Source of the DNA: a virus
IMG/VR virus record: IMGVR_UViG_3300048834_000122
Location: 1-54,132 of that record
Strand: one strand, 5' to 3'
Length of the DNA: 54,132 nucleotides
Shown: piece by piece, positions 1 to 22,714 of the stretch
Layout of the letters: the number at the start of each line of letters is the position of its first letter
How positions within the stretch are numbered: position 1 is the stretch's first letter
Position numbers and translations under genes: made by a program
Notes under the pieces: generated by a model
Database searches by the model: none
What the model saw: only the letters and a program-made list of their open reading frames with translations
What the model was told of the DNA's origin: nothing

Positions 1-127
1 TCGAGTTCATCCAGAAATACCGGAAGGAACTGCAATCTCGTGCCAAGGCCGAAGCCGACGCGAAGGACTATTACTTCCCATCGCTGACGCTCGGCTGGAT
101 CGTCGGCCACGTCGTGCTGGCGCTGAT
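1..127. repeat. End overlap, identical to 54006..54132
   Basis: Base-by-base identity over 127 nt (tcgagttcatccagaaataccgg...gtgctggcgctgat). Confidence 0.95.
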
Positions 128-3281: not shown

Positions 3282-3306
3282 CAGGTGCGCACCTCCAGCG
3301 TAGAAA
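3278..3306 (+). promoter_or_regulatory. Candidate late promoter (PR'-like)
   Basis: TTGACA (3278-3283), 17-nt spacer, TAGAAA (3301-3306). The -35 overlaps the Q-like stop codon. Confidence 0.55.
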
Positions 3307-3333
3307 TTGCGGCACGCTTCCAAAAGTCCCCCT

Positions 3334-3359
3334 GAAACCCTGCCTTGCGGCGGGGTTTC
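3334..3359 (+). terminator. Strong hairpin terminator (tR'-like) between late promoter and tRNA/lysis genes
   Basis: GAAACCCTGCC-ttgc-GGCGGGGTTTC, an 11-bp stem (one G-T pair) with a tetraloop, followed by a T-rich tcgtatctgt. Confidence 0.65.
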
Positions 3360-3369
3360 TCGTATCTGT

Positions 3370-3441
3370 AGTCGGGTAGCTCAACTGGTAGAGCAGTGCG
3401 TTGTAAGCACTAGGTCGCTGGTTCGAATCCAGCCCCGACTT
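3370..3441 (+). tRNA. tRNA-Thr (anticodon UGU), phage-encoded
   Basis: Hand-folded cloverleaf:
- acceptor AGTCGGG/CCCGACT
- D arm GCTC-AACTGGTA-GAGC
- anticodon arm AGTGC-GTTGTAA-GCACT
- variable loop AGGTC
- T arm GCTGG-TTCGAAT-CCAGC
No encoded CCA. One irregularity: no nucleotide between the D and anticodon stems. Confidence 0.75.
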
Positions 3442-3559
3442 CCCATCCCCGCACCAGGCGGAGCCTTCGTGGTTCCTCGTCAACGCCTGAACGTGGCGGT
3501 GATCGGCGCTGTCTTTGACCTGTCGGTTGGGGCAGCGCTGCTTTATTCGGAGTAATGCC

Positions 3560-4198
3560 GTGCTGCTCACTGCCAAACAGATCGAGCAGTCTGCGGGCTG
3601 CTCGGCGTCTACTGCCGTGCGTTGGTACACCCCGCTTCGTGCGGCGTGCATGCGCTACGACATCGACACGCCGGCGCGCTTGGCGGCCTTCATGGCGCAG
3701 GTTGGCCACGAGTCGGGCAGCCTGAATCGGACGGTCGAGAACCTGAACTACGGCGCTGCTGGGCTGCTGGGGACTTGGCCGAGTCGCTTCACCCGGGAAA
3801 GCGCGGCATCACTGGCGCGGAAGCCGGAAGCGATCGCGAACAAGGTCTACGGCGGCAGGCTCGGCAACGGCGACGAGGCAAGCGGCGACGGCTGGCGCTA
3901 CCGTGGTCGCGGCCTGATCCAGATCACCGGGAAGGCGAACTACAGCGGGATCCGCGACACGCTCCGGCAGCGGACGCCGGACGCGCCGGACTTCGTGGGC
4001 CAGCCTGAACTGCTGGAAACCCCGCAGTGGGCGGCGATGTCAGCCGCGGCGTACTGGGACGATCACGACCTGAACAAGCTCGCCGACGTCCAGGACTTCC
4101 GCAAGATCACCACGCGGATCAATGGCGGCCAGATCGGCGCTGCTGATCGCAATGCGCGCTATGCGAAAGCGAGGCGCGTTTTCGGGGTTACCCCGTGA
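3560..4198 (+). CDS. Endolysin, glycoside hydrolase family 19 (chitinase-like) type
   Basis: AAFMAQVGHESGSL...NYGAAG...YGGRLGNG...GWRYRGRGLIQITGKANY is the GH19 phage lysin signature. GTG 3560 preferred over the track start at 3515. Confidence 0.85.
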   Translation: MLLTAKQIEQSAGCSASTAVRWYTPLRAACMRYDIDTPARLAAFMAQVGHESGSLNRTVENLNYGAAGLLGTWPSRFTRESAASLARKPEAIANKVYGGRLGNGDEASGDGWRYRGRGLIQITGKANYSGIRDTLRQRTPDAPDFVGQPELLETPQWAAMSAAAYWDDHDLNKLADVQDFRKITTRINGGQIGAADRNARYAKARRVFGVTP

Positions 4199-4509
4199 GC
4201 GAGTTGACGCCCTGGCTGGTTGCCGGCGGATCCGGTGCACTGCTGATCACCCGGGAGATATGGGCAGCGATCGTGTCGCGCCGCAAGAACCGCACCGAAA
4301 CCGACGCCAATGTTGACCTGCTGAACGGGCTGGTCAGTCGGGTGAAGTGGTTGGAGGAGTCGCACTTCAAGCTGTCGAATCAGCTGAACGAGGAAATCCG
4401 GCTCCGGCACGCTGCGGAGGAAGTGGCGCACAAGCTCCGGCTGCGCGTCGCCACGCTGGAGTCCGTCATGCGGTCCATTGGCGCGGTGATCCCGCCCGAG
4501 CAGGACTGA
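4195..4509 (+). CDS. Membrane-anchored coiled-coil protein (i-spanin-like or lysis accessory)
   Basis: N-terminal hydrophobic segment PWLVAGGSGALLI followed by a long heptad-like helix. GTGA overlap with the endolysin gene. Confidence 0.35.
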   Translation: MSELTPWLVAGGSGALLITREIWAAIVSRRKNRTETDANVDLLNGLVSRVKWLEESHFKLSNQLNEEIRLRHAAEEVAHKLRLRVATLESVMRSIGAVIPPEQD

Positions 4510-8756: not shown

Positions 8757-8782
8757 AAGCCCCGCCACGTGCGGGGCTTTTT
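8757..8782 (+). terminator. Intrinsic terminator after terL
   Basis: AAGCCCCGC-cacgt-GCGGGGCTT followed by TTT. Confidence 0.75.
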
Positions 8783-8795
8783 GCTGGAGCAAGAC

Positions 8796-10835
8796 ATGGA
8801 AAAGATGCAGCGCGCCTACTCGGTGTTCGAGGTCAAGTCGATGGACGGCGACCGCCGGACCTTCAAGGGCTGGGCGACGACGCCAGCGGTGGACCGCATG
8901 GGCGACGAAATCGACCCGATGGGCGCCAAGTTCAAGAACCCGCTGGCGCTGCTTCACCAGCACCGCCACGACTCGCCGATTGGCACCGTTCGCTTCAGCA
9001 AGCCGACCGCGAAGGGCATCGAGTTCGAGGCCGAGATCGCGGTGATCGATGAGCCAGGTCCGCTGAAGGATCGTGTCGATACCGCATGGGGCGAGATCAA
9101 GCATGGCCTGGTGCGCGGCGTGAGTATCGGCTTCCGACCGCTGAAATACGCATTCAAGGAAGACGGCGGCATCGAGTTCAAGGAGATCGAGATCATCGAA
9201 CTCTCCAGCGTCACCATCCCCGCGCTTCCGGAAGCCGTCATCACGCAGGTGCGTTCGATGTCCGGCGGCCCGATCCCGCGCGATGTGATCCAGACCATCA
9301 AGAGCATCGACACCGACCTCCGCGCCGCGCCCGGCACTTCGGAAGTTGGCGTCAGCAATCGTCCCGGCGTCGCGGGGCACAAGCCGAAGGTCGTCCGGCC
9401 ATCGGTCTCACTGAAATCAAACGACAAGGACACTGCAATGAACGTGCAGGACCAGATCAACAAGTTCCAGGCGCTCCGCGACAAGAAGGCCGCCGACATG
9501 GCGGCGATCATGGAGAAGTCCGCCGAGACCGGCGAGACCCTGAGCGCGGAGCAGGAAGAGCAGTACGACACCCTCGGCGCCGAACTCGAGGCGATCGACA
9601 AGCACCTGGACCGCCTGAAGACCCACGAGAAGTCGCTGGTCGCCGGCGCCCGCACGGTCGAAGGCGGAAACGCCGAGCGAGGTACGCAGGCGCGCGGTGC
9701 TGGCGTCGGTGCTGGCAGCGGCCCGACGATCATCGTCAAGCGCGACCAGGACGAGAAGTTCAAGGGCCAGAACTACACCCGTCTCGTCATCGCGAAGGCG
9801 CTGGCGCGTCTCGAGGACACCAGCCCGATCGCTATCGCGCAGCGTCGCTGGGGCCAGACCAATCCGACCCTGGTCGCATTGGTGAAGGCAGCCGTCGAGG
9901 GCGGCAGTTCCGTCACCGGCGAGTGGGGCGCGGAGCTCGTGCAGGCCAACACTCAGTACACCGGGGACTTCATCGAGTTCCTGTATTCGAAGACGGTGTT
10001 CGATCGCCTGCCGCTGCGCCAGATCCCGGCCAACGTCGCCATCAAGGGCCAGGACGGCGCCGCCACTGCTTACTGGGTCGGCCAGTCGAAGGCGATCCCG
10101 GCCACGAAGGCAGATTTCAGCACCGTCAACCTGACCCCGCTGAAGGTCGCCGCGCTGGCGGTGGTCTCCAACGAGCTGCTGCGTGATTCCAGCCCTTCCG
10201 CCGAGATGCTGGTGCGTGATGCGCTGGTGAACGCCTCGGCACAGCGCGTCGACACGACCTTCCTGTCCGCCACCGCGGCGAGCAACGGCGTGTCGCCGGC
10301 CGGCATCCTGAACGGCGTTTCGGCGATCGCGAGCGCCGGCAGCGACATCGAAGGCGTCATCGCGGACGTGAAGGCGCTCTATGCTGCCTTCATCACCGCG
10401 AAGAACGCGGAAGGCCTGCAGTTCGTGACCACGCCATCGCTCGCGAAGGCACTGTCCCTGATGCAGAACGCCCTGGGCAACTTCGCCTTCCCGTCGGTCA
10501 CCGCCGGCGGCGGCAGCCTGCTTGGCGACCCGATGGTGACTGGCGACAACGTTGGTGCCGGCGACCTGATCCTGCTGAAGCCGTCCGACATCTACCGGAT
10601 CGGCGACTACGGCATCGAGGTCTCGATCTCCCGCGAAGCCACCATCGAGCAGGACAGCGAGCCGACCGGCGCCACCGATGTGCCGACCGGCATGACCGGG
10701 ACGAACATGACCTCGATGTTCCAAGAGGAATCGACCGCCATCAAGGTGGTGCGTCCGATCAACTTCGCCAAGCGCCGCGCGTCTGCGGTGGCCTACGTCG
10801 GCGATGCCGACTACGGCAACTTGACCTCGTCCTGA
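8796..10835 (+). CDS. Prohead protease fused in frame to HK97-type major capsid protein
   Basis: The N-terminus (LALLHQHRHDSPIGTV...IELSSVTIPALPEA) is protease-like. From MNVQDQINKFQALRDKKAADMAAI onward it reads as a delta domain plus capsid fold. ATG 8796 chosen because GTG 8769 lies inside the terminator. Confidence 0.85.
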   Translation: MEKMQRAYSVFEVKSMDGDRRTFKGWATTPAVDRMGDEIDPMGAKFKNPLALLHQHRHDSPIGTVRFSKPTAKGIEFEAEIAVIDEPGPLKDRVDTAWGEIKHGLVRGVSIGFRPLKYAFKEDGGIEFKEIEIIELSSVTIPALPEAVITQVRSMSGGPIPRDVIQTIKSIDTDLRAAPGTSEVGVSNRPGVAGHKPKVVRPSVSLKSNDKDTAMNVQDQINKFQALRDKKAADMAAIMEKSAETGETLSAEQEEQYDTLGAELEAIDKHLDRLKTHEKSLVAGARTVEGGNAERGTQARGAGVGAGSGPTIIVKRDQDEKFKGQNYTRLVIAKALARLEDTSPIAIAQRRWGQTNPTLVALVKAAVEGGSSVTGEWGAELVQANTQYTGDFIEFLYSKTVFDRLPLRQIPANVAIKGQDGAATAYWVGQSKAIPATKADFSTVNLTPLKVAALAVVSNELLRDSSPSAEMLVRDALVNASAQRVDTTFLSATAASNGVSPAGILNGVSAIASAGSDIEGVIADVKALYAAFITAKNAEGLQFVTTPSLAKALSLMQNALGNFAFPSVTAGGGSLLGDPMVTGDNVGAGDLILLKPSDIYRIGDYGIEVSISREATIEQDSEPTGATDVPTGMTGTNMTSMFQEESTAIKVVRPINFAKRRASAVAYVGDADYGNLTSS

Positions 10836-11357: not shown

Positions 11358-12719
11358 ATGGGCGGCATGACCATTTTCGGCGTTGTCCAGAAAGCCATCG
11401 GCGGCCGCGGCTCGCTGAGCCCGGTGGACGATAGTCGCGGCTGGCACGTCATCCAAGAGTTCTTCCCTGGAGCGTTCCAAGCGGACGAGAAGGTCAGCGT
11501 CGAATCGCAACTGTCCTTCTTCGCGGTCTACGCCTGCGTGACGCTGATCAGCAGTGACATGGGCAAGCTGCGGCAGATGCTGGTGGAAAAGACCACCGAC
11601 GGCATCTGGCAGGAAGTGTCGAGCCCGGCATTCTCGCCGGTGCTCCGGAATCCGAACCGGTACCAGAACCATATCCAGTTCAAGCAGACCTGGGCGATCT
11701 CGAAGCTCACCCGCGGCAATACCTATGGGCTGAAGGTGCGGGACGCCCGCGGCGTGGTCACCAGCATCTACATCCTCGATCCCGATCGCGTGACGCCGAT
11801 GGTGGCCGTGGATGGCTCGATCTTCTACGCGCTCTCCCAGGACAACCTGAGTGGGATCGAGCAGGCGCAGGTCGTCGTGCCGGCGTCGGAGATCATCCAC
11901 GACCGCATGAATTGTCTGTACCACCCGCTGGTTGGCATCTCGCCGCTGTATGCATGCGCGCTGGCCTCGCAACAGGGTCTGGCGATCCAGCGACAGACGC
12001 GGAACATGTTCAAGAACGGCGGTCGCCCGGCCGGCATCCTGACCGCGCCGGCGCAGATCGGCAACGAGAAGGCCGCAGAACTGAAGGCGCGCTGGGACGA
12101 AACCTACGGCCCGAACGGCACCGGTGGAACCGCGGTCCTCGGCAACGACCTGAAATACGAAGCGCTGGTCATGAAGTCGGTCGACGCGCAGCTTGTCGAG
12201 CAGCTGAAGCTGACCGCCGAGCAGGTCTGCACCGCGTTCCGCGTTCCCCCCTTCAAGATCGCAGTCGGCCAGATGCCGACGTTCCAGAACGGCGAAGTGT
12301 TGAACCAGATCTATTACGACAACTGCCTGCAGTCGATGATCGAAGAGTACGAGGTCTGCATGGACGAGGGCCTCGGCATCGGCGAAGGTCTGAAGGTCCA
12401 AGGCCGCGAACTCGGTATCGAGCTCGACCTCGACGGGCTGATGCGCATGGATAGCGAGCGCAAGATCAAGGCGCTGTCCGAAGGCGTGAAGGGCTCACTG
12501 ATTAAGATCAACGAGGGCCGCAAGAAGCTGGACCTTCCGAAGGTCGAAGGCGGCGACGACATCTACATGCAGGTGCAGTACGTCCCGCTCGGGACGCCGC
12601 CTGCGCCTGCAGCTGAGCCACCTGCGCTGCCTGATCCGCCGATCGACGATCCCGATGAAACCGACAAGGCGTTGGCGCTGCTGTGGAAGCGTTCGCCGGA
12701 GACCCTGACCCATGCTTGA
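11358..12719 (+). CDS. Portal protein (HK97 family)
   Basis: 453 aa. Contains VYACVTLISSDMGKL...NPNRYQN...GNTYG...ILDP...LKYEALVMKSVDAQLVEQLKL, which is portal-typical. Confidence 0.9.
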   Translation: MGGMTIFGVVQKAIGGRGSLSPVDDSRGWHVIQEFFPGAFQADEKVSVESQLSFFAVYACVTLISSDMGKLRQMLVEKTTDGIWQEVSSPAFSPVLRNPNRYQNHIQFKQTWAISKLTRGNTYGLKVRDARGVVTSIYILDPDRVTPMVAVDGSIFYALSQDNLSGIEQAQVVVPASEIIHDRMNCLYHPLVGISPLYACALASQQGLAIQRQTRNMFKNGGRPAGILTAPAQIGNEKAAELKARWDETYGPNGTGGTAVLGNDLKYEALVMKSVDAQLVEQLKLTAEQVCTAFRVPPFKIAVGQMPTFQNGEVLNQIYYDNCLQSMIEEYEVCMDEGLGIGEGLKVQGRELGIELDLDGLMRMDSERKIKALSEGVKGSLIKINEGRKKLDLPKVEGGDDIYMQVQYVPLGTPPAPAAEPPALPDPPIDDPDETDKALALLWKRSPETLTHA

Positions 12720-13635
12720 CGTGACGAAGTTCGTCGGCGAGTTGCACGACTACATCGGGCGCGCGCTGGCACCCATTGCCGACAGGCTCAAGCGCTTGGA
12801 GGATCGTGCGCCGGAACGCGGCGAGAAGGGCGAGCAAGGGCAGACGGGTCGCGATGGCATCGATGGCGCTACCGGTGTTGCTGGTGAGCCCGGGCAACCC
12901 GGCGAACGCGGTGAGAAGGGCGAGCCGGGGGAGCGTGGCGAAGCGGGCAAGGATGCTGAGCCCGTCGATGTGGCTGCTGTGGCTGATGCGGTAATCGCGA
13001 AGCTGCTGGCATCGGACCGGCTGAAAACCTTGGCCGAAGTGTCGGCGGCATCGGCGGTGGCCGAGCACTTCGAGGCCAATCCGATCCAGCATGGCCGGGA
13101 CGGCAAGGATGGCGAGCGAGGGATGCAGGGCGAGCGCGGCGTCCAGGGTGATGCTGGCCAGCGCGGGACGGATGGTGCGGACGGTGTTGGCATGGCTGGC
13201 GCGATCATCGATCGAACCGGCGCCCTGGTGATCACCACCACGAAGGGCGATGCGATTCCGCTGGGCTGCGTGGTCGGCAAGGACGGTGAGGCCGGCAAAG
13301 ACGGCCGCGATGGGTTCAGCCTAGACGACCTCGCAATCGAAGACGACGGCGATGGCACGATCACGCTGCGCTTCATCCGCGGCGACCTATTGCGCGAGAA
13401 GCAGATTCGTTATCCCCGTGGCGATCGCGGCGTGTTCAAGGATGGCGAGACCTACCGCAAGGGCGATGGCGCCACGTTCGGCGGCAGCTGGTGGGTCGCG
13501 CAGGTCGACAGCCCAGAGGGTTCGCCCGGGGTCTCGAAGGACTGGCGCCTGGCGGTGAAGAAGGGCCGCGACGGCAAGGATGGCCGCAACGGCATCGACA
13601 AGACCGCGCCGGCGAAGCTGGAAGCCTCGAAGTGA
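12712..13635 (+). CDS. Collagen-like triple-helix repeat protein with C-terminal carbohydrate-binding-like module
   Basis: Gly-X-Y runs (GEKGEQGQTGRDGIDGATGVAGEPGQPGERGEKGEPGERGEAGKD; GRDGKDGERGMQGERGVQGDAGQRGTDGADG). C-terminal YRKGDGATFGGSWWVAQ...W resembles CBM5/12. Confidence 0.8.
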   Translation: MLDVTKFVGELHDYIGRALAPIADRLKRLEDRAPERGEKGEQGQTGRDGIDGATGVAGEPGQPGERGEKGEPGERGEAGKDAEPVDVAAVADAVIAKLLASDRLKTLAEVSAASAVAEHFEANPIQHGRDGKDGERGMQGERGVQGDAGQRGTDGADGVGMAGAIIDRTGALVITTTKGDAIPLGCVVGKDGEAGKDGRDGFSLDDLAIEDDGDGTITLRFIRGDLLREKQIRYPRGDRGVFKDGETYRKGDGATFGGSWWVAQVDSPEGSPGVSKDWRLAVKKGRDGKDGRNGIDKTAPAKLEASK

Positions 13636-14015
13636 GCCGCAACCTGCTGACGCTGGAACAAGCGAAGCGCCACCTGAACATCGACGTCTATGCCGACGCC
13701 GAATCCTCGTCGTCGGACACCGATCCCGAGGCCGGCATCCACGACGCCGAGATCCTCGAGAAGATCGAGGAGGCGTCCGAGGTCATCCTGAAGCACCTGA
13801 AGTCGGCCGATTTCCTCGATTCCGACGGATTCGTTCCGGTCGACAGCGAAGACCGGCCGGAGATTCCGGGAAACGTGCGCGCCGCGGCGAAGCTGATGCT
13901 CGGCTATCTGTGGGAGCACCGCGACGAGGACGCCGAAGGGGCCTACCAGGACGCGAACCTGCCGCAGGGTGTCCGCGCGCTGCTGGCGGCCGATCGAGTT
14001 CCGACGCTCGCATGA
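13632..14015 (+). CDS. Head-tail connector (gp6-like)
   Basis: The N-terminal LTLEQAKRHLNID motif is typical of gp6-like connector proteins. GTGA overlap with the upstream gene. Confidence 0.7.
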   Translation: MSRNLLTLEQAKRHLNIDVYADAESSSSDTDPEAGIHDAEILEKIEEASEVILKHLKSADFLDSDGFVPVDSEDRPEIPGNVRAAAKLMLGYLWEHRDEDAEGAYQDANLPQGVRALLAADRVPTLA

Positions 14016-14221
14016 TCGCCGGGATTTTCATCGGGTTGGCGATCGCCGCGGTCCTGTGGATGTCGTGGCACCTGTCGCCGCTGGGTGATCCCGAAACAGG
14101 AGCGGGAAGGCAAGAGTTCCGCGAAGGCTCCATGCGTTCGAACGTGAAGCGATACGGCAGGAACGGGCCGCCACCTTGTCCGAAACCACCCCCGCCACCG
14201 AATCCTCCGCGCACTCGCTGA
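14012..14221 (+). CDS. Small TM protein with Pro-rich tail (69 aa)
   Basis: MIAGIFIGLAIAAVLWMSW at the N-terminus and ...GPPPCPKPPPPPNPP at the C-terminus. Confidence 0.45.
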   Translation: MIAGIFIGLAIAAVLWMSWHLSPLGDPETGAGRQEFREGSMRSNVKRYGRNGPPPCPKPPPPPNPPRTR

Positions 14222-14222
14222 C

Positions 14223-14759
14223 GTGTCTCGCTGGTTCGTCCTTGCACCTGGTCCTTCGATGAGCCGGGAGGTCGCCGATCGCGTCCGTGGTGAGAACGTG
14301 GTGGTGGTCGGCAACGCTTTCGAACTGGCGCCATGGGCCGCCGGGCTGGTGGCGAACGACAAGGTCTGGTGGACCGAGCATCCGGCGGCACGCAAGTTCG
14401 CCGGTCGGAAGTTCACCACGAAGACGCTCAGCGGCATCGAGCGTCATCGCGGGAAAGGGGTCGGCGGCGATTCGAACTCGGGAATGCTCGGGATCGACGT
14501 CGCCGTCGAGGTGTTCAAGGCGTCGCAGGTGCTGCTGCTGGGGTTCGATTTCCAGGGCACGCACTTCTTCGGTCGGTACACGAATGGCTGCAGCAACACG
14601 ACTGTGGCGAGTCGGGTCAAGCACCACCGCCAGATGAAGGTCTGGCGAATGCTGCACCCGAAAGTGGATGTGGTGAACCTGACGCCAGGGTCGGCGTTGC
14701 GCGTGTTTCCGATGGCAGAGCTCGATGCCTACGTTCCTCCGCAACGCCTCGTGGCATGA
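14223..14759 (+). CDS. MptE/DUF115-like (Maf-type) putative sugar transferase
   Basis: LAPGPS, VVVVGNA and GGDSNSGMLGIDVAVEVFKASQVLLLGFDFQG resemble the recalled DUF115 layout. Not searched. Confidence 0.4.
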   Translation: MSRWFVLAPGPSMSREVADRVRGENVVVVGNAFELAPWAAGLVANDKVWWTEHPAARKFAGRKFTTKTLSGIERHRGKGVGGDSNSGMLGIDVAVEVFKASQVLLLGFDFQGTHFFGRYTNGCSNTTVASRVKHHRQMKVWRMLHPKVDVVNLTPGSALRVFPMAELDAYVPPQRLVA

Positions 14760-15108
14760 GGTCGCCGCGCTATTTCCGCGCGAGGCCGATGCGATCCGGA
14801 ACGCGGATGGCTGGGCGGCGCGGTTCGGAGACGTGCCGCGGGAATACCGCCGGCGCCGGGTCGTGCTGGAGTCGTGGTCGGACGTGGAACTGGCGCACCT
14901 GATGCACGCCATGGCCGAGTTCGAACCACGGATGGTGTCGGACTGGGTCGACGGCGTGAACAACGCGCAGTTGCCACCACGGGTCGACGGCTTGCCGGCG
15001 GCGCTGGTGCGGTTTGGTGAACGGCTCGGGATGATCGATGGCAAGCACCGGGCGAACCGCTGGAAGCGCGTCGCGGGGCAGTACGCGGTTCTGGTGATCG
15101 AATGCTGA
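14725..15108 (+). CDS. ParB/Srx-fold-like protein
   Basis: GMIDGKHRANRW resembles the ParB N-terminal domain DGxHR motif. Confidence 0.4.
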   Translation: MPTFLRNASWHEVAALFPREADAIRNADGWAARFGDVPREYRRRRVVLESWSDVELAHLMHAMAEFEPRMVSDWVDGVNNAQLPPRVDGLPAALVRFGERLGMIDGKHRANRWKRVAGQYAVLVIEC

Positions 15109-15740
15109 GCATCGTGCTGACGTTCTACGGTCAACCGGCAATGCTGGCAGAGCAGGCGCGCATCTGGCGCGACTATCCGGCCGGTGTCGAGGTGATCGTC
15201 GTCGATGACGGTTCGGCAGTGCCTGCTGAGCCGCAGGCCGGCTCGTCGGGCTATCGCGTCGAGGTAGACATCCCTTGGCACCAGGACGGTGCCCGGAACC
15301 TCGGCGCGAGGATGGCGACGGGGGAATGGTTGCTGCTGCTGGACATCGATCATGCGATCAGCGCGTGCGAGCTTTCGCGCCTGCTGGCCCTGCTGCCGAT
15401 GTTGCCGCCCGGTACGGCGTTCAGGCCGAATAGGCGGTTGGTCGATGAAGCCTACCGGCTGACACCGGCGGCGAACATCTGGCTGATCCGCCGGAAGGAT
15501 TTCTGGCGGGTCGGAGGCTACGACGAGCGGCTCTGTGGCCACTACGGCACGGACCTCGAATTCCGGCCGAAGCTGAAGCGAACGCTGCGGGAGCGGGTGC
15601 TGCCGGTGGTGCTGGATGTCTATCGTCGGGACAACATCGCGGACGCGACGACGGCGGGGCTCGATCGCACCGTGGTGCAGCCACCGAGGTTGAAAGGCCC
15701 GCGCAAGGTGGTTGGGTTTCCGTGGAGTCGGGCGTGGTGA
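15102..15740 (+). CDS. Family-2-type (GT-A) glycosyltransferase
   Basis: SIVLTFYGQP...VIVVDDGS...LLLLDIDH (DxD)...WRVGGYDE. Confidence 0.75.
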   Translation: MLSIVLTFYGQPAMLAEQARIWRDYPAGVEVIVVDDGSAVPAEPQAGSSGYRVEVDIPWHQDGARNLGARMATGEWLLLLDIDHAISACELSRLLALLPMLPPGTAFRPNRRLVDEAYRLTPAANIWLIRRKDFWRVGGYDERLCGHYGTDLEFRPKLKRTLRERVLPVVLDVYRRDNIADATTAGLDRTVVQPPRLKGPRKVVGFPWSRAW

Positions 15741-15757
15741 AGGAGTAAAGTCGAGGA

Positions 15758-15958
15758 ATGGACATCATCGACACGAAGGCGATCAAGCTGGTTCGCAGGT
15801 GGCAGGACGCGCCGCGAAGCGCTTCCGACACTCAGGTCATCGAGGTCATGGGGCAGTCGCTTTGGTTCGCCATGTTGAGGCTGAAGATTAGTCTTCGTGA
15901 ACTTTTCAGGCCGCTGCGGAAGGTGACCAGGATGTTGCTTCGGAGGTTGCCTGCATGA
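15758..15958 (+). CDS. Hypothetical ORF in a low-G+C patch
   Basis: ATG preceded by GAGG. Composition differs from the rest of the genome, so coding status is uncertain. Confidence 0.3.
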   Translation: MDIIDTKAIKLVRRWQDAPRSASDTQVIEVMGQSLWFAMLRLKISLRELFRPLRKVTRMLLRRLPA

Positions 15959-16197
15959 AGGCAAAATTGCCGATTCTCTGGAACCACGATCACACCAAAC
16001 CGATAGGCTCCGTAGAGGCTGTTGACGGTGCGCTGAAGTTCAAGTTCAGCGAGGACGTGAAGATTACCCGTGAAAAAATGTTCGAAATATTCGGGGGTGC
16101 TGGAATCAGGGTCACAGAAATGGAAGAGATCGACGGCGTTGTCACCATCAAGTCAGGTGAGATTCTGGAGTTCTCGTTCCTCGCACTGCCGCCGTAA
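15955..16197 (+). CDS. Small protein with prohead-protease-like end motifs (80 aa)
   Basis: LPILWNHDHTKPIGSV and ILEFSFLALPP echo LALLHQHRHDSPIGTV and IIELSSVTIPALP of the protease at 8796. Lies in a low-G+C patch and is followed by a terminator. Confidence 0.4.
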   Translation: MKAKLPILWNHDHTKPIGSVEAVDGALKFKFSEDVKITREKMFEIFGGAGIRVTEMEEIDGVVTIKSGEILEFSFLALPP

Positions 16198-16223
16198 GCG
16201 CAAAGAACCAACAAGTTGATCAG

Positions 16224-16250
16224 AGGCCGCCGCAAGGCGGCCTTTTCATT
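16224..16250 (+). terminator. Intrinsic terminator inside the island
   Basis: AGGCCGCC-gcaa-GGCGGCCT followed by TTTcaTT. Confidence 0.75.
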
Positions 16251-16260
16251 GGGCGAGAGA

Positions 16261-16926
16261 ATGACGAACCTCGTGGTCTACACCTGCGTTTTCGGCGACA
16301 CGGATCCGCTGAGGGATCCCCTCCAGCCGGGCCGGACTCGGTTCGTGTGCTTCACCGATCGGCCGATCAAGTCGCGGGTGTGGGAGATCGTCCGCCTGCC
16401 GAAGCGCATCGCGCCGAAGCGGGCCTGCCGCGAGTACAAGCAGCCGTCGCACCTGATCTTCCCGGATGCCGATGCAACACTCTGGATCGATGCTCAGATG
16501 ATCCTGCTGGTCGATCCGCAGCAGATCGCGGCGCAGTACCCCGGCGAGTTCACCGGTTTCAAGCACCACAAGCGGCAGCGGATCAAGGACGAGGCGGAGG
16601 CCATCATCCGCGCCGGCAAGGGAAAGGCGGACGCGATCCATGCGCAGCTGGCGGCGTATCAGGCCGAGGGCTGGGACACGGAAGCGGAGCCGCAGCAAGC
16701 GATCACCAATGGCGGCTTCATGCTGCGCCGGCACACCGAGCGCGTGAAGGCGTTCAACGACATGTGGCACCACGAAGTCCAGACCCGAACGCTGCGCGAC
16801 CAGATGAGCCTGGACTACTGCGCGGCGCGGACTGGCCTGCAAATCGACTACTTCCCGGGCAATGTTGCCCAGAACCCGCTTGCGCGCCGGCTGGCGTATC
16901 CGCACAAGCCAACGAACGATTTCTGA
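16261..16926 (+). CDS. DUF616-like putative glycosyltransferase
   Basis: NLVVYTCVFGDTDPL...RFVCFTD... matches the recalled DUF616 N-terminal signature. ATG 16261 chosen because the track start lies inside the terminator. Confidence 0.5.
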   Translation: MTNLVVYTCVFGDTDPLRDPLQPGRTRFVCFTDRPIKSRVWEIVRLPKRIAPKRACREYKQPSHLIFPDADATLWIDAQMILLVDPQQIAAQYPGEFTGFKHHKRQRIKDEAEAIIRAGKGKADAIHAQLAAYQAEGWDTEAEPQQAITNGGFMLRRHTERVKAFNDMWHHEVQTRTLRDQMSLDYCAARTGLQIDYFPGNVAQNPLARRLAYPHKPTNDF

Positions 16927-16936
16927 GAGGACTGAA

Positions 16937-17203
16937 ATGGAAACTCTGCTGAGCAGCGCTGCGACGGAAGGCACCAGTAGCGAGGTTGTGCTGGAAGCCG
17001 ATCAGAAGGTGACGATCATCCTGACCGGCAAGGGGTACGTGCGCCTGCAGGTGAAGGGTGTCGGCGACGCGTTTTCGACGTCCGCCGAAATGAATGGCCT
17101 TCGCACCGAGAGCCGTACCGGGCAAGTGGCCGGGCCGCTGACATTCCGCATGTATCGACCCGAGCAGGCGCGCGCGGTTGCCGTGGGCATGGAAGAGGGC
17201 TGA
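16937..17203 (+). CDS. Hypothetical protein (88 aa)
   Basis: ATG preceded by GAGAGGA. Looks beta-rich. Confidence 0.45.
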   Translation: METLLSSAATEGTSSEVVLEADQKVTIILTGKGYVRLQVKGVGDAFSTSAEMNGLRTESRTGQVAGPLTFRMYRPEQARAVAVGMEEG

Positions 17204-17206
17204 TCG

Positions 17207-19585
17207 GTGTCGCGTCGCCGGTCTCTGCTGACCCCGATCCTGCAGCCGATCCTTTCGCCGGATTTTCGCGCCATCTCCGACCCTGGCGTGGGGGGAGGGG
17301 CATGGAGTCCGCTGGCGTTGTTCCTTCCGGGGAACGTCGGCTATGCCTACGATTTCACGTCTGCATCCCTGAACTACCAGGAGAACACGCGGACGAATCT
17401 CGTCACCACGCCGGGGCATTCCATCGGCAGCGCGACCGACTTGTCTGGGCTGGGCAACCACGCCTCGCAGGCAACTTCAGCGCAGCGGCCCGCGTATCAG
17501 GGGACGTGTCGATTCGTCGGCGCGGATGACTCGCTTGCAACGCCTTCGGTGGACTTCACCGGCACCAACAAGGTCACGGTGCTCATCAAGCTGAAGTCGA
17601 ACTCCAGCGGCACGGTGCAGATTCCGCTGGAGCTGTCCTCCTCCGCTGCCAGCAACAGCGGATCGTTTTCTCTGGAAGCGCCGAACACCACTACCAACCG
17701 ATACGCCGTTGGAGTCAGGGGATCGGCAACATACTGCGAAGTCCGGCTGCCGGGACAGGTCGCGCCGGTCACGAATGTCATTGTCGCGCAGCTCGACTCG
17801 TCGCAGGCAACGGTGCTTGGACAAATCAGCGCCACGATCTCCCCGTCTGGTGGCGCTGCTACTACAAACGGCACGGCGAGTGTCGCCGCAAACTTCGGCA
17901 ACCACATTAGTTACATAGGACGCCGGGCAGGTGCGTCCGCCCCGTTCAACGGGGACATTGACCGAATCATCGTCATCGGCAGGGCGCTTACTGCACCCGA
18001 GCTTGCAGCGGCCACGACGTGGATCGCGAGCAGCTCCGCCCCGGCCTTGCACGGGGCAATCACTGATCGGGTCGTCGTGGCAAGGCGCGGCGACCAATTG
18101 CTGATTCGCACCAAGTGGGACAGCGACACCGACCTTATCCAGTCAGTCTCGATGAAGTCAGGCGTGTCGGCCGTGCCGGACATGGTGAGCTTCATGGGCG
18201 CGCGGCTCGTGCCCAATTCGGAGATTGACGCACTGGCCGGCTTCAACGCCGCAAGCGGGGCAAACATCATCGGAGCGCAGGGGGACGACGCAACGCCGTT
18301 CCTGATCAATGGGACGTTCATAGGCGCAAACCACGGCTGCGATAGGCTGCGGCGGGTTCCGGCAACGGCTCATGGTAAGACGGTTGAGGACATTGGTTCC
18401 GTCTGGACGGACTCGCTCGCGCGGCGGTGGGTGCTTATGGCCATCGTGAGTGCGAACGTGTTGGATTTCATCTCGGAGAATCAGTCGGTCGCGCCCGAGT
18501 GGTCTTTCCACACAACGCTGAGTGGCACCACGCTCACCCATGCGAGCGGCGCACTGCATACAGGGGCCATCGCAATCACCAGCGCCGTGACGGGGTATCA
18601 GCTTTATCCAGCGGTGAACAACATCGTCAAGGCCGTCAGGCTGGACGGCATCACAGACATCACTGCCGGGCCGGACAGCATCTACACATGCGACTTCCTC
18701 GACATAGAGCACGACTACGGCGTGACAAATGTTGGCGAGGTGGTGGAGTTTGCGAAGGCGAGGGCTGGCGGTGCAGTTGCCCCAGACTACTCGGACGACA
18801 GCATTCCTGTTGACCTCAGTGCCAGCATCCGTTATCGCTTCACACCAAAGCACGCCTGCGCTGTTGAACAAAGCGCGACTGCGCAGCGAAACCTTAGCTT
18901 CGGGTACATCGGCTTCATGCAGGCGGTGAAGCTTTCAATCACCGGGACTGACACACTCTGGACGTATGTGCCGCGCCTGAATCCGATCACCGTTGGCGCG
19001 AACACCTACGACCTCTCCGCGCAGCACAACATGGCCGGATTCGCGGATAACGTCTACTTCACCACGCCGACATGGGCGGACGCCAACAACCCGCCGTCGA
19101 GCATGACCCAGATGGTCAAGAACTCAGGCGGGACCAAGCTGCATTCCTTCACGATGGGCTACACCCCTGATCGTTTTATTGGCGTGCCGGCACTTCGCAA
19201 AACCCTCGTCGGCGAGGCCGGCCGCCTTGCCAGCACCAGCAAGCACTATCTGGAAGGTCTAGAGTCAACCGGATCGGCTTTCCCTGGCGGAATCTTGCCG
19301 GAGGACGTGGAATACAGCGTTGTCGGCTATCGGGCCTTTACCAACAATGCCGACGACTTCCCGCATGGGCCGGAGGGCTGCTGGTATCTGGACGGGGACG
19401 ATGTGATTGTGGTGCTGGACTTCGACACCACGCAGAGCAATTACACGTTCCCGCTTCCGGCATGGATGGATGGAAAGGTGGCAACGGTCATCGAGTCGGA
19501 CGCCTTTACGCTGCATAGCGCCACGGCCAGCAGCGGAATCACGGTCTCGTCCACGGCTGGTCGTGGAATCGTGCGGCTTACTTGA
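17207..19585 (+). CDS. Large LamG/concanavalin-A-like domain protein with uncharacterised C-terminal 500 aa
   Basis: The N-terminal roughly 270 aa end in FNGDIDRIIVIGRALTAPELAAATTWI (LamG-type). Lower G+C by eye than the flanking structural genes. Confidence 0.6.
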   Translation: MSRRRSLLTPILQPILSPDFRAISDPGVGGGAWSPLALFLPGNVGYAYDFTSASLNYQENTRTNLVTTPGHSIGSATDLSGLGNHASQATSAQRPAYQGTCRFVGADDSLATPSVDFTGTNKVTVLIKLKSNSSGTVQIPLELSSSAASNSGSFSLEAPNTTTNRYAVGVRGSATYCEVRLPGQVAPVTNVIVAQLDSSQATVLGQISATISPSGGAATTNGTASVAANFGNHISYIGRRAGASAPFNGDIDRIIVIGRALTAPELAAATTWIASSSAPALHGAITDRVVVARRGDQLLIRTKWDSDTDLIQSVSMKSGVSAVPDMVSFMGARLVPNSEIDALAGFNAASGANIIGAQGDDATPFLINGTFIGANHGCDRLRRVPATAHGKTVEDIGSVWTDSLARRWVLMAIVSANVLDFISENQSVAPEWSFHTTLSGTTLTHASGALHTGAIAITSAVTGYQLYPAVNNIVKAVRLDGITDITAGPDSIYTCDFLDIEHDYGVTNVGEVVEFAKARAGGAVAPDYSDDSIPVDLSASIRYRFTPKHACAVEQSATAQRNLSFGYIGFMQAVKLSITGTDTLWTYVPRLNPITVGANTYDLSAQHNMAGFADNVYFTTPTWADANNPPSSMTQMVKNSGGTKLHSFTMGYTPDRFIGVPALRKTLVGEAGRLASTSKHYLEGLESTGSAFPGGILPEDVEYSVVGYRAFTNNADDFPHGPEGCWYLDGDDVIVVLDFDTTQSNYTFPLPAWMDGKVATVIESDAFTLHSATASSGITVSSTAGRGIVRLT

Positions 19586-19712
19586 TCGACTGCCACTTGG
19601 CAGCCTCTTCCTCGTCGTCGCCGATGTGTTCCTTGATTCGGCGGTCGAAGAAGTCGTCAATGGCGATGAAGAACCGCACGGCCCTTGCCCACCCACGCTT
19701 GAGAATACTCAT
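19578..19712 (-). CDS. Small antisense ORF (44 aa)
   Basis: MSILKRGWARAVRFFIAIDDFFDRRIKEHIGDDEEEAAKWQSIK. Third-position G+C is reasonable. Converges on the LamG gene and overlaps its end by 8 nt. Confidence 0.35.
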   Translation of the reverse strand: MSILKRGWARAVRFFIAIDDFFDRRIKEHIGDDEEEAAKWQSIK

Positions 19713-19838
19713 GTCGAGCGCCTGTCGTTGACCGGCTGGCACGGTAGCACACGGCCTAAAACGGCGTCTCTTCCCAAACCGGCAGGGCTTGCTGCGCCTG
19801 TAGGCGGCGGCACTCGATTCAACAATTCAGGAAACGAA

Positions 19839-20513
19839 ATGCAGGTTTCAGTCATCACACCGACCGCAGACAGGCCGCGCGGCATCGAGCTGTGCGAGCG
19901 CTACATGGCCCGCCAGACCGTGCAGCCGGACGAGTGGATCGTCTCCGACGGTGGACAGGTGCCGGCGAAGCTCACGATGGCGCAGGTGCATTTGCGGCAG
20001 CCGGGTCCGCCTGGCGCTGCGAATCTGGCCTGCAACGTGCTGCGCGCGCTGAAAGCGGTAACCGGTGATGTCGTGATCGTGGTCGAGGACGATGATCACT
20101 ACGCGCCGAATCACATCGAGGCGTGCATCGCAGGCCTGAAACGCAATCCCGCCTACGGCTGCTCGCGCCTGCTGTATTTCAACGTCGCGCACCGCTGTTG
20201 GGTGCAGATGGCCAACCGCGGCGCGGCGCTGTGCCAGACCGCATTCCGGCGGGAACTGATCCCGGTGATGCAGAGCGCAGCGCAGGACGCGATGGCGAAC
20301 AACGACTTCACCATCGACGGCCGCTTCTGGGCGAAGCGGAAGCACATGGCGACCGGCGCGCAGACGGTCATCGGCATCAAGGGCCTGGCCGGAACCCCGG
20401 GGCTTGGCATCGGCCATCGCCCGAAATCGAAGGCCGGCCGTCGCTGGAAGCCTGATCCTGAATTGAAGGTTCTGCGCCAGATGATCGGCGCGGACGCGGA
20501 GAACTACCTGTGA
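19839..20513 (+). CDS. Second GT-A-type glycosyltransferase
   Basis: VSVITPTADRPRG...VVIVVEDDDHYAPNHIE (DxD). ATG 19839 follows a 125-nt gap. Confidence 0.6.
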   Translation: MQVSVITPTADRPRGIELCERYMARQTVQPDEWIVSDGGQVPAKLTMAQVHLRQPGPPGAANLACNVLRALKAVTGDVVIVVEDDDHYAPNHIEACIAGLKRNPAYGCSRLLYFNVAHRCWVQMANRGAALCQTAFRRELIPVMQSAAQDAMANNDFTIDGRFWAKRKHMATGAQTVIGIKGLAGTPGLGIGHRPKSKAGRRWKPDPELKVLRQMIGADAENYL

Positions 20514-21019
20514 TTCTGATCACCCCCGAGTACCGCGCGCTCAACGCCGAACTGCACGCCCGCGTGCCGGCGTACGGGACCGGCGGTCACAAGTGGGCGG
20601 AGGTGGTGCGCGAGATCGTGCGGGAGACCGGCGCGAAGTCGGTCCTGGACTATGGCTGCGGTAAGGGCACGCTCCGCGCAGCGCTGCACCCGCTAACGGT
20701 GCACGAATACGATCCGGCAGTGGCCGGCAAGGAAACGCCGCCATCGTCGGCTGGCGTCGTGATCTGCGCTGACGTGATGGAGCACGTGGAACCGGAATGC
20801 ACCGATGCCGTGATCGCGCACCTCTGCGCGCTGGCATCGCGCGCGGTGTTCGTGGTGGTGGCCTGCCGGGAAGGTGGCAAGCGCCTCGCCGATGGTCGGC
20901 CGGCGCACATCCATGTGCAGCCGCCGGCGTGGTGGCACGCGAAGTTCAGCGAGTTCGGCGCGTTCAATCAAGCTCCGAGCGGCGATGACGAATACGTCGC
21001 GCTGTGGGTGCGCAAATGA
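20510..21019 (+). CDS. Class I SAM-dependent methyltransferase
   Basis: Motif I VLDYGCGKG and a downstream VVICADVMEHV. GTGA overlap with the upstream gene. Confidence 0.75.
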   Translation: MILITPEYRALNAELHARVPAYGTGGHKWAEVVREIVRETGAKSVLDYGCGKGTLRAALHPLTVHEYDPAVAGKETPPSSAGVVICADVMEHVEPECTDAVIAHLCALASRAVFVVVACREGGKRLADGRPAHIHVQPPAWWHAKFSEFGAFNQAPSGDDEYVALWVRK

Positions 21020-21366
21020 AATCCGGCCCGCTTCGCCACGGCTTGGAGTTGCTGAAGCCGTCGCTGACCGAGGACGATACTGGCCAGCAGGTCGAATCGT
21101 TCGCCCCGGTGGCGACCGTCGCCGCCGAGATCGCTTCGGTGTCGATGACCAACATGGCGTACGCGCGGGAGCTTGTCGCAGGCGGCGCAGATTCCTCGTT
21201 CGACATCCGCCAGATCACGATGCGCTTCCGGCGTGACGTGACGATGGGCTGGAAGGTCAGGCCACGCGGCGGGCGCTACGCGGGGCAGGAGATGCCGATC
21301 CGCGCCGTGCGCGAAGGCAACAAGCCGACCATCCTGGTCCTGTTCGTGCAGGTTCCCCGTGGCTGA
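21016..21366 (+). CDS. Head closure / head-tail adaptor protein
   Basis: MKSGPLRHGLELLKP...DDTGQ... is typical of the head-tail joining family. ATGA overlap. Confidence 0.65.
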   Translation: MKSGPLRHGLELLKPSLTEDDTGQQVESFAPVATVAAEIASVSMTNMAYARELVAGGADSSFDIRQITMRFRRDVTMGWKVRPRGGRYAGQEMPIRAVREGNKPTILVLFVQVPRG

Positions 21367-21760
21367 TTTCGATATTCAGGTGCTTGGCCTGAAGGAACTG
21401 GACGCCGCGCTGCAGAACCTCGCATATCCAGCGACGCGACGCGCGCTGCGCAAGGGAATGCGCGCCGGTGCCAACGTGGTGCGCGACGAGGTTCGCGCAC
21501 GAGCCCCGGTCAAGTCCGGCAACTTGAAGCGGAAGATTCGCACCCGGGAACGCAGCGAGGACCAGGGCAACATGCGGTTCGCCGTCGAAGTCCCGCGCAG
21601 TGCGTTCTACGGCAAGTTCTTCGAATACGGCACGTCGAAGATGGCGGCCAAGCCGTTCATGCGGCCCGCGGCGGAAGCAAAGACGGAAGCGGCGGTGACG
21701 ATGATGCGCGACTCCCTGCAGATCGCCATCTCGCTGGAAATGTCTAAGGTGCGCCGATGA
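21359..21760 (+). CDS. HK97 gp10-like tail-attachment protein
   Basis: ...KSGNLKRKI...YGKFFEYGTSKMAAKPFMRPA is a gp10-family signature. Confidence 0.7.
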   Translation: MADFDIQVLGLKELDAALQNLAYPATRRALRKGMRAGANVVRDEVRARAPVKSGNLKRKIRTRERSEDQGNMRFAVEVPRSAFYGKFFEYGTSKMAAKPFMRPAAEAKTEAAVTMMRDSLQIAISLEMSKVRR

Positions 21761-22101
21761 GCATGGAATCCGACCTGCTGACCGCGATGCGCACAGTGCT
21801 CGGGGCATCGTTCAAGTTCCCGGTGAAGTCGGCGCAGACCGGCGTGTATGCGACATACCAGCGCATCACCGGCCGTCGGCATGGAACACTGAACTCTGGG
21901 CTCGGCGCCCCGGTGGCGACGTTCCAAATTGATGTGTGGGGCAAGGCTGGCGGTTCCGCGATCGGCGATGTGGTCGAGGCGCTGAAGGAAGCGCTGCCGG
22001 ATTCCCTGAAGGTCGGCGATATCAACGACAACCCCGACGATTACGAAACCGATACGCAGCTGCATCGGGCGTCGTTCGACGTGACGATCTGGCAGCGATA
22101 G
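21757..22101 (+). CDS. Tail completion/terminator-like protein (DUF3168-like)
   Basis: Position and size (114 aa). Ends in ...FQIDVWGK...FDVTIWQR. Confidence 0.45.
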   Translation: MSMESDLLTAMRTVLGASFKFPVKSAQTGVYATYQRITGRRHGTLNSGLGAPVATFQIDVWGKAGGSAIGDVVEALKEALPDSLKVGDINDNPDDYETDTQLHRASFDVTIWQR

Positions 22102-22122
22102 AGCGCGCATAGCGCAACACCG

Positions 22123-22154
22123 AAGGGCTGCCGAAAGGCGGCCCTTTTCATTTT
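22123..22154 (+). terminator. Intrinsic terminator before the major tail gene
   Basis: AAGGGCTGCC-gaaa-GGCGGCCCTT followed by TTcaTTTT. Confidence 0.75.
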
Positions 22155-22267
22155 CCGAGGCTCGCAGCAATGCGGGCCTTTTGCATTTCGGCGGAGCGCT
22201 CCGCTGGGAAACGGCTGCCGCAAGGCCGCCGGTCATTCGTCGCAACAACCATCGATGGAGTAACACC

Positions 22268-22714
22268 ATGGACAACAAGGCAATTTCCGCGCAAGACAGC
22301 GCCATCTTCGTGAGCACCACGGAGATGACGTCCTTCGACCCCGCCGACTACACCGAAGTCGATGGCGTCTCCACCTTCCCGTTCGGTCCCGGCCAGGCGA
22401 ACACGCTGGATGCGACCAACCTGCGCAGCACCGAGCTCGAGAACATCCCGGGCCTGTCCGGCGGGCAGTCGGTGCAGGTCTCCGGTCACCGCTGGCCGAT
22501 CGGCGATTCCCCGGGCCAGGACATCCTGATGGAAGCGGCGCAGACCGACGACCTCTGGTTCCTGATGGTGCTCCCGTCGGGCGACAAGGCGACGTTCGTC
22601 GCGAAGGTGGCGGCGTTCAATGTGGCCCCGGGCGTGAACGCGGTGCTGACCTTCACCGCCGACGTGCTGCCGCGCAACTTCCAGCTCGAAGCCACCGCTT
22701 CGTCGAGCCCGTAA
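22268..22714 (+). CDS. Major tail (tube) protein
   Basis: 148 aa, immediately upstream of the frameshifted chaperone pair and the tape measure gene. Preceded by GGAG. Confidence 0.65.
   Translation: MDNKAISAQDSAIFVSTTEMTSFDPADYTEVDGVSTFPFGPGQANTLDATNLRSTELENIPGLSGGQSVQVSGHRWPIGDSPGQDILMEAAQTDDLWFLMVLPSGDKATFVAKVAAFNVAPGVNAVLTFTADVLPRNFQLEATASSSP

Follow-up and report, generated by a model that had tools for sequence, protein, structure and literature searches.

The 54,132-nt metagenomic virus record IMGVR_UViG_3300048834_000122 (positions 1 to 54,132, in the following called the window) carries in the middle of its late structural operon a block of genes at 14012-21019, which we read, with about even confidence, as a late-expressed protein-glycosylation module modifying virion proteins with an O-glycan. 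The block comprises glycosyltransferases, a methyltransferase and a small MptE/DUF115-like protein, i02; on comparative sequence grounds a variable hot spot of transferase and methyltransferase genes, anchored by an i02-like gene, extends through the whole phage lineage, cultured Pseudomonas phages included. The analysis established the gene content, the folds and families, the synteny, the borders of the insertions, the domain fusions and an association between transferases and capsid tails.

As the first-pass annotation of the window had proposed, the block is wedged between the gene of a gp6-like head-tail adaptor (Ad1; 13632..14015; PHROG 40 'head-tail adaptor Ad1', phrog_40, 4e-12) on its left and that of a head completion/closure protein (HCP; 21016..21366; PF05521, 1.6e-12) on its right; all features described here lie on the plus strand unless stated otherwise. 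Twelve open reading frames (ORFs) were counted in the block instead of the thirteen given before, and they are numbered i01 to i12. With the G+C content of the codon positions (GC3/GC2) as coding signal, the large ORFs showed GC3 values of 0.74-0.86 versus GC2 values of 0.44-0.54. Start/stop overlaps of 4-35 nt were found at six junctions (gp6-like/i01, i02/i03, i03/i04, i05/i06, i11/i12 and i12/HCP), and the sole gap of more than 63 nt is a 253-nt spacer downstream of the LamG gene. Neither a sigma-70-like promoter nor a strong terminator was detected within the block (the 10.5-23.5 kb stretch was scanned for hairpins), so that the proposed co-orientation with and start/stop coupling to the late operon is borne out. 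Transmembrane segments were absent from all block enzymes, i01 alone being hydrophobic, and no flippase, polymerase, GtrABC-type or acetyltransferase partner was present in the block. With the integrase gene (36428-37765) 15 kb away, no promoter of its own and no membrane partners, the block indeed differs from att-proximal conversion cassettes, as had been supposed.

Profile and structure searches recovered the expected transferase and methyltransferase families, and all of the peptide motifs quoted in the first-pass annotation were found in the sequence. The two enzymes proposed to be of GT-A type both scored above the gathering cut-off as family 2 glycosyltransferases and carry DXD-type motifs: i04 (GT2a; 15102..15740) matches PF10111 with 46.5 bits and PF00535 with 34.8 bits and contains VVDDGS and DIDH, and i11 (GT2b; 19839..20513) matches PF00535 with 31.2 bits and contains EDDDH. 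The former is common to the related loci L097 and L014. Homologs of the latter occur in L014, L042, L060, L063, L094 and L097, and no tblastn match to it was obtained in 50,697 records of cultured phages. The DUF616-like transferase suggested earlier, i07 (16261..16926), is a TOD1/MUCI70-like (formerly DUF616) glycosyltransferase according to its match to PF04765 TOD1_MUCI70 (1e-22, 81.3 bits versus a cut-off of 21.4). It shares ~77% nucleotide identity with L097, and the alignment of the two gives the ATG at 16261 as the probable true start; in cultured phages only matches of 23-27% identity were found, in Cellulophaga phages and cyanophages. Gene i12 (20510..21019) encodes the anticipated class I S-adenosylmethionine (SAM)-dependent methyltransferase, supported by phrog_24759 (2e-22) and the motif VLDYGCGKG; its match to Pfam Methyltransf_23 (24.6 bits) stays just under the cut-off of 27.

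The remaining core gene besides i02 is i03 (14725..15108), which encodes a lineage-specific protein of 127 aa with a DGKHR motif. Its homologs (n = 27) are all metagenomic and without a recorded Pfam domain, and those i03-bearing contigs that were inspected (L097, L014) belong to the clade of the window phage. No match was found in Pfam, PHROG or NCBIfam, and nothing significant in a PDB profile search. The AF2 model (pLDDT 84) gave in Foldseek a match to the ParB structure 6sdk with an E value of only 4.6 over 37 columns. The ParB/Srx-like assignment, which had been made on the peptide IDGKHRANRW, was consequently rejected, as there is no profile match and the fold match is insignificant.

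The anchor of the hot spot, i02 (14223..14759), is an MptE/DUF115-like alpha/beta protein of 178 aa that matches phrog_4603 with 2e-26. All of its close homologs (n = 41) are metagenomic and lack Pfam annotation, and the family as a whole amounts to 4787 clusters at 50% identity (E <= 1e-3). Nine polar residues are invariant, namely N31, D46, S86, D109, H114, Q137, N152, T154 and S157. While PDB sequence and profile searches with i02 returned no match, a Foldseek search of its AF2 model (pLDDT 90.5) gave catalytic domains of thiamine pyrophosphokinases as the best, weak match in the PDB (E 2e-3, TM 0.44). Its matches in BFVD comprised numerous Caudovirales proteins of 170-225 aa without characterisation (TM up to 0.74), a number of MptE-like proteins (E 4e-4, TM 0.59-0.61) and a mimivirid DUF115 protein (TM 0.63). 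The window protein itself has no gathering-score match to PF01973 (MptE-like/DUF115); weak matches to this family were seen for 7 of 23 members of the i02 family (best E 0.011) and for 11 hot-spot ORFs of related loci (1e-5 at best). Because of the fold matches and these weak PF01973 matches in relatives, the MptE/DUF115 call holds at the superfamily level. The earlier description of i02 as MptE/DUF115 (Maf)-like therefore stands for superfamily and fold, but not as a PF01973 match of the window protein. The PHROG label 'alpha-2,3-sialyltransferase' could not be verified for i02; the only match of sialyltransferase type was a weak one to GT29 in BFVD (E 0.09), and the top PDB structures in Foldseek were the pyrophosphokinases.

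Further information on i02 comes from natural domain fusions. The i02 domain is fused to a TOD1-like transferase in P0221 (42% identical to i07), to a GT2b-like transferase in P0191 and to a methyltransferase in P0107, and these enzyme fusions argue for a single pathway. In four further clusters (P0104, P0111, P0114 and P0108; L106 534-2474) it is fused to collagen repeats. A PKD domain was confirmed in P0104, three of the four collagen-fusion clusters carry a stretch aligning to the PKD region of P0104, and the C-terminal region of these fusions appears LamG-like when read by eye. In another phage, the gene of P0104 immediately follows that of the head completion protein, and P0221 is encoded immediately behind a collagen-repeat protein. 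For the fusion partner in P0092 no PDB match was obtained. The fibre fusions make a virion-associated or structural role of i02 conceivable.

In order to place the block among relatives, 93 related loci (L numbers) were gathered via portal similarity, and i02 was called in them either by tblastn or by hidden Markov model (HMM). Homologs of i02 lie downstream of the collagen-like protein (gp6-like/HCP where detected) in 42 of the 93 loci by tblastn and in more of them by HMM. The complete six-gene core (i02, i03, GT2a, TOD1-like transferase, GT2b and methyltransferase) occupies the same site in L097 within 3.5 kb, and L014 has five of the six genes, i02 not being detectable there. Other loci hold other combinations: the sister clade L094-L096 has a three-gene form with i02, a GT1-like protein and a GT2, L104 and L105 have i02 together with 5-7 ORFs including a methyltransferase, and L005 and L008 have a methyltransferase and a GT8-like protein. 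An unbiased Pfam census (147 hot-spot ORFs, 43 loci) gave methyltransferase families (12, 6, 4 and 3), MptE-like (11), GT8 (3) and GT2 (1). The exact position of the hot spot varies, being between Ad1 and HCP in the clade of the window, between HCP and gp10 in L005, L050, L104, L105, L106 and phage IME307, and split around Ad1 and Hc1 in vB_Pae_U7. The first-pass annotation had described a single 7 kb island between normally adjacent genes and had suggested a synteny comparison with related phages to define its borders. The comparison instead revealed a lineage-wide hot spot, in which the core is common to relatives; only some 50% of the 7 kb is peculiar to the window, and this part arrived as three separate insertions.

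With respect to the possible target of the enzymes, the C-termini of two virion proteins were compared. The prohead protease-major capsid protein (MCP) fusion (8769..10835; PF04586 plus PF05065) ends with ...DYGNLTSS and the tail tube protein (22268..22714; weak Phage_TTP_11 match) with ...EATASSSP, which makes both of them candidate glycan acceptors. The corresponding capsid and tail tube ends are GATSP and ATASSSL in L097 and SASSP and ATASSSV in L094, so that the tail tube end is conserved as ATASSS[PLV] in the window clade (window, L094, L097). L097 possesses separate protease and capsid genes of another type at 2205-4319, whereas they are fused in the window at 8769-10835. Among complete hot spots, counted as unique cases, a Ser/Thr pair was present in the last five capsid residues of 11 of the 13 with a recognisable glycosyltransferase (GT2a, TOD1, GT2b, GT8-like or GT1-like) and in none of the 22 lacking one (Fisher p = 2e-7 over ~6 distinct tail types, uncorrected for phylogeny). 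The Ser/Thr-ended capsids at glycosyltransferase loci therefore favour a virion target. L097 is the closest relative by island content; the head genes were thus exchanged between it and the window, with retention of the glycosylation block and the tail tube gene, and both capsid proteins are Ser/Thr-tailed.

An association of i02 itself with Ser/Thr tails on capsid or tail tube, which was apparent with tblastn-based calls (p = 0.001), was dropped since it was not robust to sensitive HMM calling, and only the link between transferases and capsid tails persisted. Most tail tube ends of the type 'PKSSS'/'PKSTS' belong to loci, IME307 among them, in which i02 is present and a recognisable transferase is missing.

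On this basis a mechanism may be proposed. The six core genes would be expressed along with those of head and tail, at the level of both transcription and translation, and their soluble products would use nucleotide-sugars and SAM of the host in the cytoplasm. Partners for a modification of DNA are lacking: none of the large ORFs that were scanned in this complete, circular genome encoded a hydroxymethylase or a sugar-nucleotide function. A short, partly methylated O-glycan would then be built on virion proteins before or during assembly. The likeliest acceptors would be the Ser/Thr-rich C-terminal tails of the capsid (...NLTSS) and the tail tube (...ATASSSP), with the collagen-like head protein as an alternative target. 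By analogy with the Maf/DUF115 flagellin glycosyltransferases, i02 is possibly the initiating transferase; it is the conserved component of the hot spot, and the other transferases and methyltransferases are swapped between phages, which would generate glycan diversity. We infer in this scheme that protein is the substrate, as well as the modified residues, the identity of the glycan and the role of i02.

Several points weigh against virion O-glycosylation. Its support is computational throughout, and peripheral GT2 enzymes that lack transmembrane segments can also use lipid-linked glycans of the cell surface as substrates. The best solved-structure match of i02, weak as it is (TM 0.44), is a pyrophosphokinase and not a glycosyltransferase, PF01973 does not match the window protein, and the fusions of i02 to collagen, PKD and LamG-like fibre modules also fit a virion-bound or structural role. 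Furthermore, the test of transferases against capsid tails was made without phylogeny correction and contains some circularity, the GT8-like seed having been picked after the tails had been seen. Finally, the link between i02 and Ser/Thr tails vanished with HMM-based calls (21/30 versus 3/7, p = 0.21).

Among the alternatives, the enzymes could remodel the cell envelope by modifying a surface glycan of the host (lipopolysaccharide (LPS) O-antigen or core, capsule or exopolysaccharide (EPS)), which would serve superinfection exclusion, prevent re-adsorption of progeny to lysing cells or bring about lysogenic conversion via leaky expression. The phage is temperate (integrase, RecT/YqaJ), GT2, GT8 and GT25-type enzymes are typical of LPS and EPS, small peripheral GT2 enzymes function without a transmembrane segment, and D3-like phages are known serotype converters (PMC4815439). 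However, the block is surrounded by late structural genes of the same operon, the integrase is 15 kb away, and it has neither promoter nor terminator of its own; it lacks a membrane transferase, flippase, polymerase or acetyltransferase partner, and its position among the connector genes is kept across very divergent phages. Moreover, the presence of transferases follows the capsid C-terminal sequence, which would not be expected of a role at the host surface. Given its location and its lack of both membrane components and an own promoter, the block is unlikely to be an ordinary seroconversion cassette, and we consider envelope remodelling as a whole unlikely. A hypermodification of phage DNA or nucleotides against restriction by the MptE/pyrophosphokinase-like protein, the transferases and the methyltransferase is less probable still. 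Phage transferases commonly glycosylate DNA, according to a review (PMC12619734), the nearest solved fold of i02 is a pyrophosphokinase, and the DGKHR motif of i03 recalls nucleotide-binding ParB/Srx proteins; the ParB/Srx assignment failed, though, the block belongs to the head-tail connector cluster instead of the replication module, and an ordinary N6/N4 DNA methylase is already present in the early region. The scan of the large ORFs yielded no gene of the hydroxymethylase, thymidylate-synthase-like or any other base-modifying type, which makes DNA hypermodification very improbable.

The block might also not represent one pathway at all. In this case i02 would be a structural or assembly protein of neck or head, such as a collar or head-fibre anchor, and the transferases, the methyltransferase and the LamG protein would be unrelated morons at a recombination-permissive site. 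Such a view is in agreement with the fact that in all lineages seen i02 is encoded alongside adaptor, closure and tail-completion genes, with its weak solved-structure matches and with the four i02-collagen fusion clusters, which (three with a PKD-aligned stretch, and with a LamG-like C-terminus) have the typical architecture of virion-surface fibres. The site also takes up foreign DNA, as the three insertions with a protease fragment and a mobile LamG gene demonstrate. On the other hand, fusions of i02 to TOD1-like, GT2b-like and methyltransferase domains are hard to explain for a purely structural protein, the invariant residues of i02 are polar and catalytic-looking, and the same enzyme classes recur in unrelated lineages, unlike a random build-up of morons. 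We regard this explanation as quite improbable.

The three insertions were delimited by blastn against L097, the closest long relative (i02 82% identical). Shared with L097 are 13561-14016 with the gp6-like adaptor gene (~80% nucleotide identity up to position 14016), 14229-15725 with i02, i03 and GT2a, 16266-16930 with the TOD1-like transferase, and 19848-21932 with GT2b, the methyltransferase, HCP, gp10 and gp17. Found in the window only are 14017-14228 (insertion 1, 0.2 kb, i01), the low-G+C segment 15726-16265 (insertion 2, 0.5 kb, i05 and i06) and 16931-19847 (insertion 3, 2.9 kb, i08, the LamG gene and an antisense ORF). Only short repeats at chance level flank them. Thus i01, i05/i06 and i08 with the LamG gene are later additions outside the core pathway.

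The hydrophobic, Pro-rich ORF listed earlier as a transmembrane, Pro-rich peptide does exist as i01 (14012..14221; 69 aa, N-terminal hydrophobic segment with a KD19 maximum of 2.12 at residue 1, Pro-rich tail). Its coding signature is weak (GC3 0.70 versus GC2 0.61), and it has neither a counterpart in L097 nor a family match, so that it may not be a gene. The two small ORFs i05 (66 aa) and i06 (80 aa) at 15758..16197 (i06 at 15955-16197) are low in G+C, as noted before, with values of 0.57 and 0.51, and are without counterparts in L097 and L014. The i06 product resembles the N-terminal ~80 residues of S78 prohead proteases (weak phrog_80 and PF04586 matches). It is ~30% identical over 80 aa to the protease-MCP fusion proteins of other loci and aligns to the window's own protease, whose fusion gene lies 5 kb upstream, at the His motif LWNHDHTKPIG. 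It could represent a truncated paralog or the scar of a recombination event.

Insertion 3 starts with i08 (16937-17203; 88 aa), and at its site L097 holds an unrelated ORF of 67 aa. The 792-aa LamG protein i09 (17207-19585) was recovered with a marginal match to Laminin_G_3 PF13385 (27.7 versus a cut-off of 27.6 bits) restricted to residues 105-266, and its C-terminal ~500 aa gave no match by PDB sequence, PDB profile or PHROG search. Its gene (17264-19578) is 81% identical in nucleotide sequence to 10046-12360 of L099, an unrelated phage. Homologs of 788-807 aa in L099, L100 and L101 close the late gene block, each behind an ORF of ~90 aa, and those in L100 and L101 (10001-12424) come after the tail genes. 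The behaviour of the LamG gene is hence that of a horizontally mobile gene which stems from the late block's tail-side end, and not that of a pathway enzyme, contrary to its earlier inclusion in the pathway. The antisense ORF of 54 aa (19578-19742, minus strand) in the 253-nt spacer is coding-like in composition (GC3 0.75, GC2 0.38), and no homolog of it was found in any fetched locus.

The ends of the window (1-127 and 54006-54132) form an exact 127-nt repeat, and the window is therefore a circularly closed, complete phage genome of ~54.0 kb. The phage is a temperate, D3-like siphophage of HK97 type. In addition to the integrase, its early and replication content comprises an N6/N4 DNA methylase (early region), YqaJ/RecT and DUF1376/DnaC/DnaB, and a single tRNA-Thr (anticodon TGT) is encoded at 3370-3443 in the early, packaging-proximal region. 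The late operon runs in the order TerL, prohead protease-MCP fusion, p92, portal, collagen-like protein, gp6-like adaptor, block, head completion protein, gp10-like, gp17-like, tail tube, chaperone and tape measure, and is concluded by a distal tail of RcGTA/phiJL001 type; this gene order agrees with that of D3-like Pseudomonas phages. Strong terminator-like hairpins occur in the 10.5-23.5 kb stretch only at 22122-22180, where two of them follow each other between the gp17-like and tail tube genes. The collagen-like head-module protein (12712..13635; PF01391 Collagen, 3e-15) adjoins the block without being a member and is a candidate substrate or partner; its homologs are located after the portal in 78 of the 93 related loci. 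Its C-terminal domain matches PHROGs named 'portal protein' (window 12712-13635; L109 10373-11377), and the IME307 homolog bears the annotation 'portal protein' as well. This name looks like a propagated misannotation of a conserved post-portal protein. The portal relatives from the genome scan, with at most 54% identity, stem from Alpha-, Beta- and Gammaproteobacteria and one deltaproteobacterial metagenome-assembled genome, and the host of the phage is probably proteobacterial. Near-identical DNA to 7-27 kb of the window was not found in cultured phages.

Beyond the window, the small MptE/DUF115-like family might tentatively be regarded as the conserved core of virion O-glycosylation in proteobacterial HK97-type siphophages including D3-like ones, with exchangeable enzymes writing the glycans on Ser/Thr tails of capsid and tail tube; this generalization we hold to be rather doubtful at present. 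Proteins of the i02 family (~4800 clusters) are without annotation or at best mislabelled 'sialyltransferase'. If the generalization were true, virion glycan coats would be common well beyond mycobacteriophages. Should the module do what the mycobacteriophage systems do, glycan-coated virions would be widespread in phages of Gram-negative hosts, including relatives of the classical Pseudomonas phage D3. This would bear on the immunogenicity and pharmacokinetics of phages in therapy, on adsorption to mucus and biofilm matrix, on the interpretation of cryo-EM densities and on how thousands of 'hypothetical' genes located between those of head and tail are annotated. In addition, a compact, soluble tag-plus-enzyme toolkit for capsid glyco-engineering would be available. 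The interest arises chiefly from the conserved i02-centred hot spot, which reaches cultured, experimentally tractable Pseudomonas phages (IME307, U7).

The closest functional precedent is found in mycobacteriophages. According to PMC12619734, PMC12363180 and PMC11256854, which cite Freeman 2023, the phages Che8 (gp110), Corndog and Myrna glycosylate the C-termini of capsid and tail tube with their own transferases. The literature searched contained no experimentally shown virion glycosylation outside mycobacteriophages, and none of it dealt with virion glycosylation in D3-like phages or with MptE-like or 'sialyltransferase' genes from the connector clusters of phages. The reported mycobacteriophage targets, the capsid and tail tube C-termini, are paralleled by the two Ser/Thr-tailed proteins of the window. 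The gene order of Corndog was checked (portal, TylF-like O-methyltransferase, the unassigned gp36, GT2-like gp37, GT25 gp38, protease; gp35-38), and as in the window, phage GT-A-type transferases and an O-methyltransferase lie inside the head operon; the glycosyltransferases and the methyltransferase of the window are located within the virion structural operon and co-oriented with it. The two modules differ in their site (portal-protease in Corndog versus adaptor/head-closure in the window), and Corndog has no counterpart of the MptE/DUF115-like anchor or of the TOD1/MUCI70-like transferase. Furthermore, Corndog belongs to another phage lineage than the D3-like window phage, for which glycosylation is predicted from the genes. 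In the comparison with the Corndog proteins, GT2a resembled gp37 marginally (25% identity, E 4e-4), GT2b matched gp36 with an E value of 0.02, and no window enzyme matched gp38. The module of the window is therefore to be considered analogous and probably non-orthologous, with a different lineage, anchor enzyme and insertion site.

With the Maf/DUF115 proteins i02 shares the fold at superfamily level, and by analogy its proposed role would be equal to theirs. Maf proteins perform a cytoplasmic O-glycosylation of Ser/Thr on the subunits of a polymerising structure. In contrast to them, i02 is a minimal domain of 178 aa lacking the flanking Maf domains, it has no PF01973 match, and no genes of nonulosonic-acid biosynthesis lie near it. 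The GtrABC and D3 iap/wzy-beta/oac cassettes are likewise sets of glycan-modifying genes on temperate phages. They lie close to att, their expression takes place in the prophage, and integral membrane proteins are among their products, whereas the block of the window has neither a membrane transferase, flippase or polymerase nor att proximity or a promoter of its own.

The cultured relatives closest to this arrangement are the Pseudomonas phages. The D3-like phage vB_PaS_IME307 (Detrevirus) has the same head module of protease-MCP fusion, portal, collagen-like protein and gp6-like adaptor, with identities to the window of 39% for the portal, 40% for the protease-MCP fusion and 32% for the collagen-like protein, and its tail tube protein ends with PKSTS. 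Both IME307 and vB_Pae_U7 carry an i02-family protein and a methyltransferase at the connector-gene hot spot. In IME307 the i02-family member is p189 (hmmsearch 5e-30), followed by a 275-aa protein and then the methyltransferase. In these two phages the set is confined to i02, the ~275-aa protein and the methyltransferase, annotated as hypothetical or 'sialyltransferase', whereas the window adds two GT2 enzymes, the TOD1-like transferase, i03 and the three insertions.

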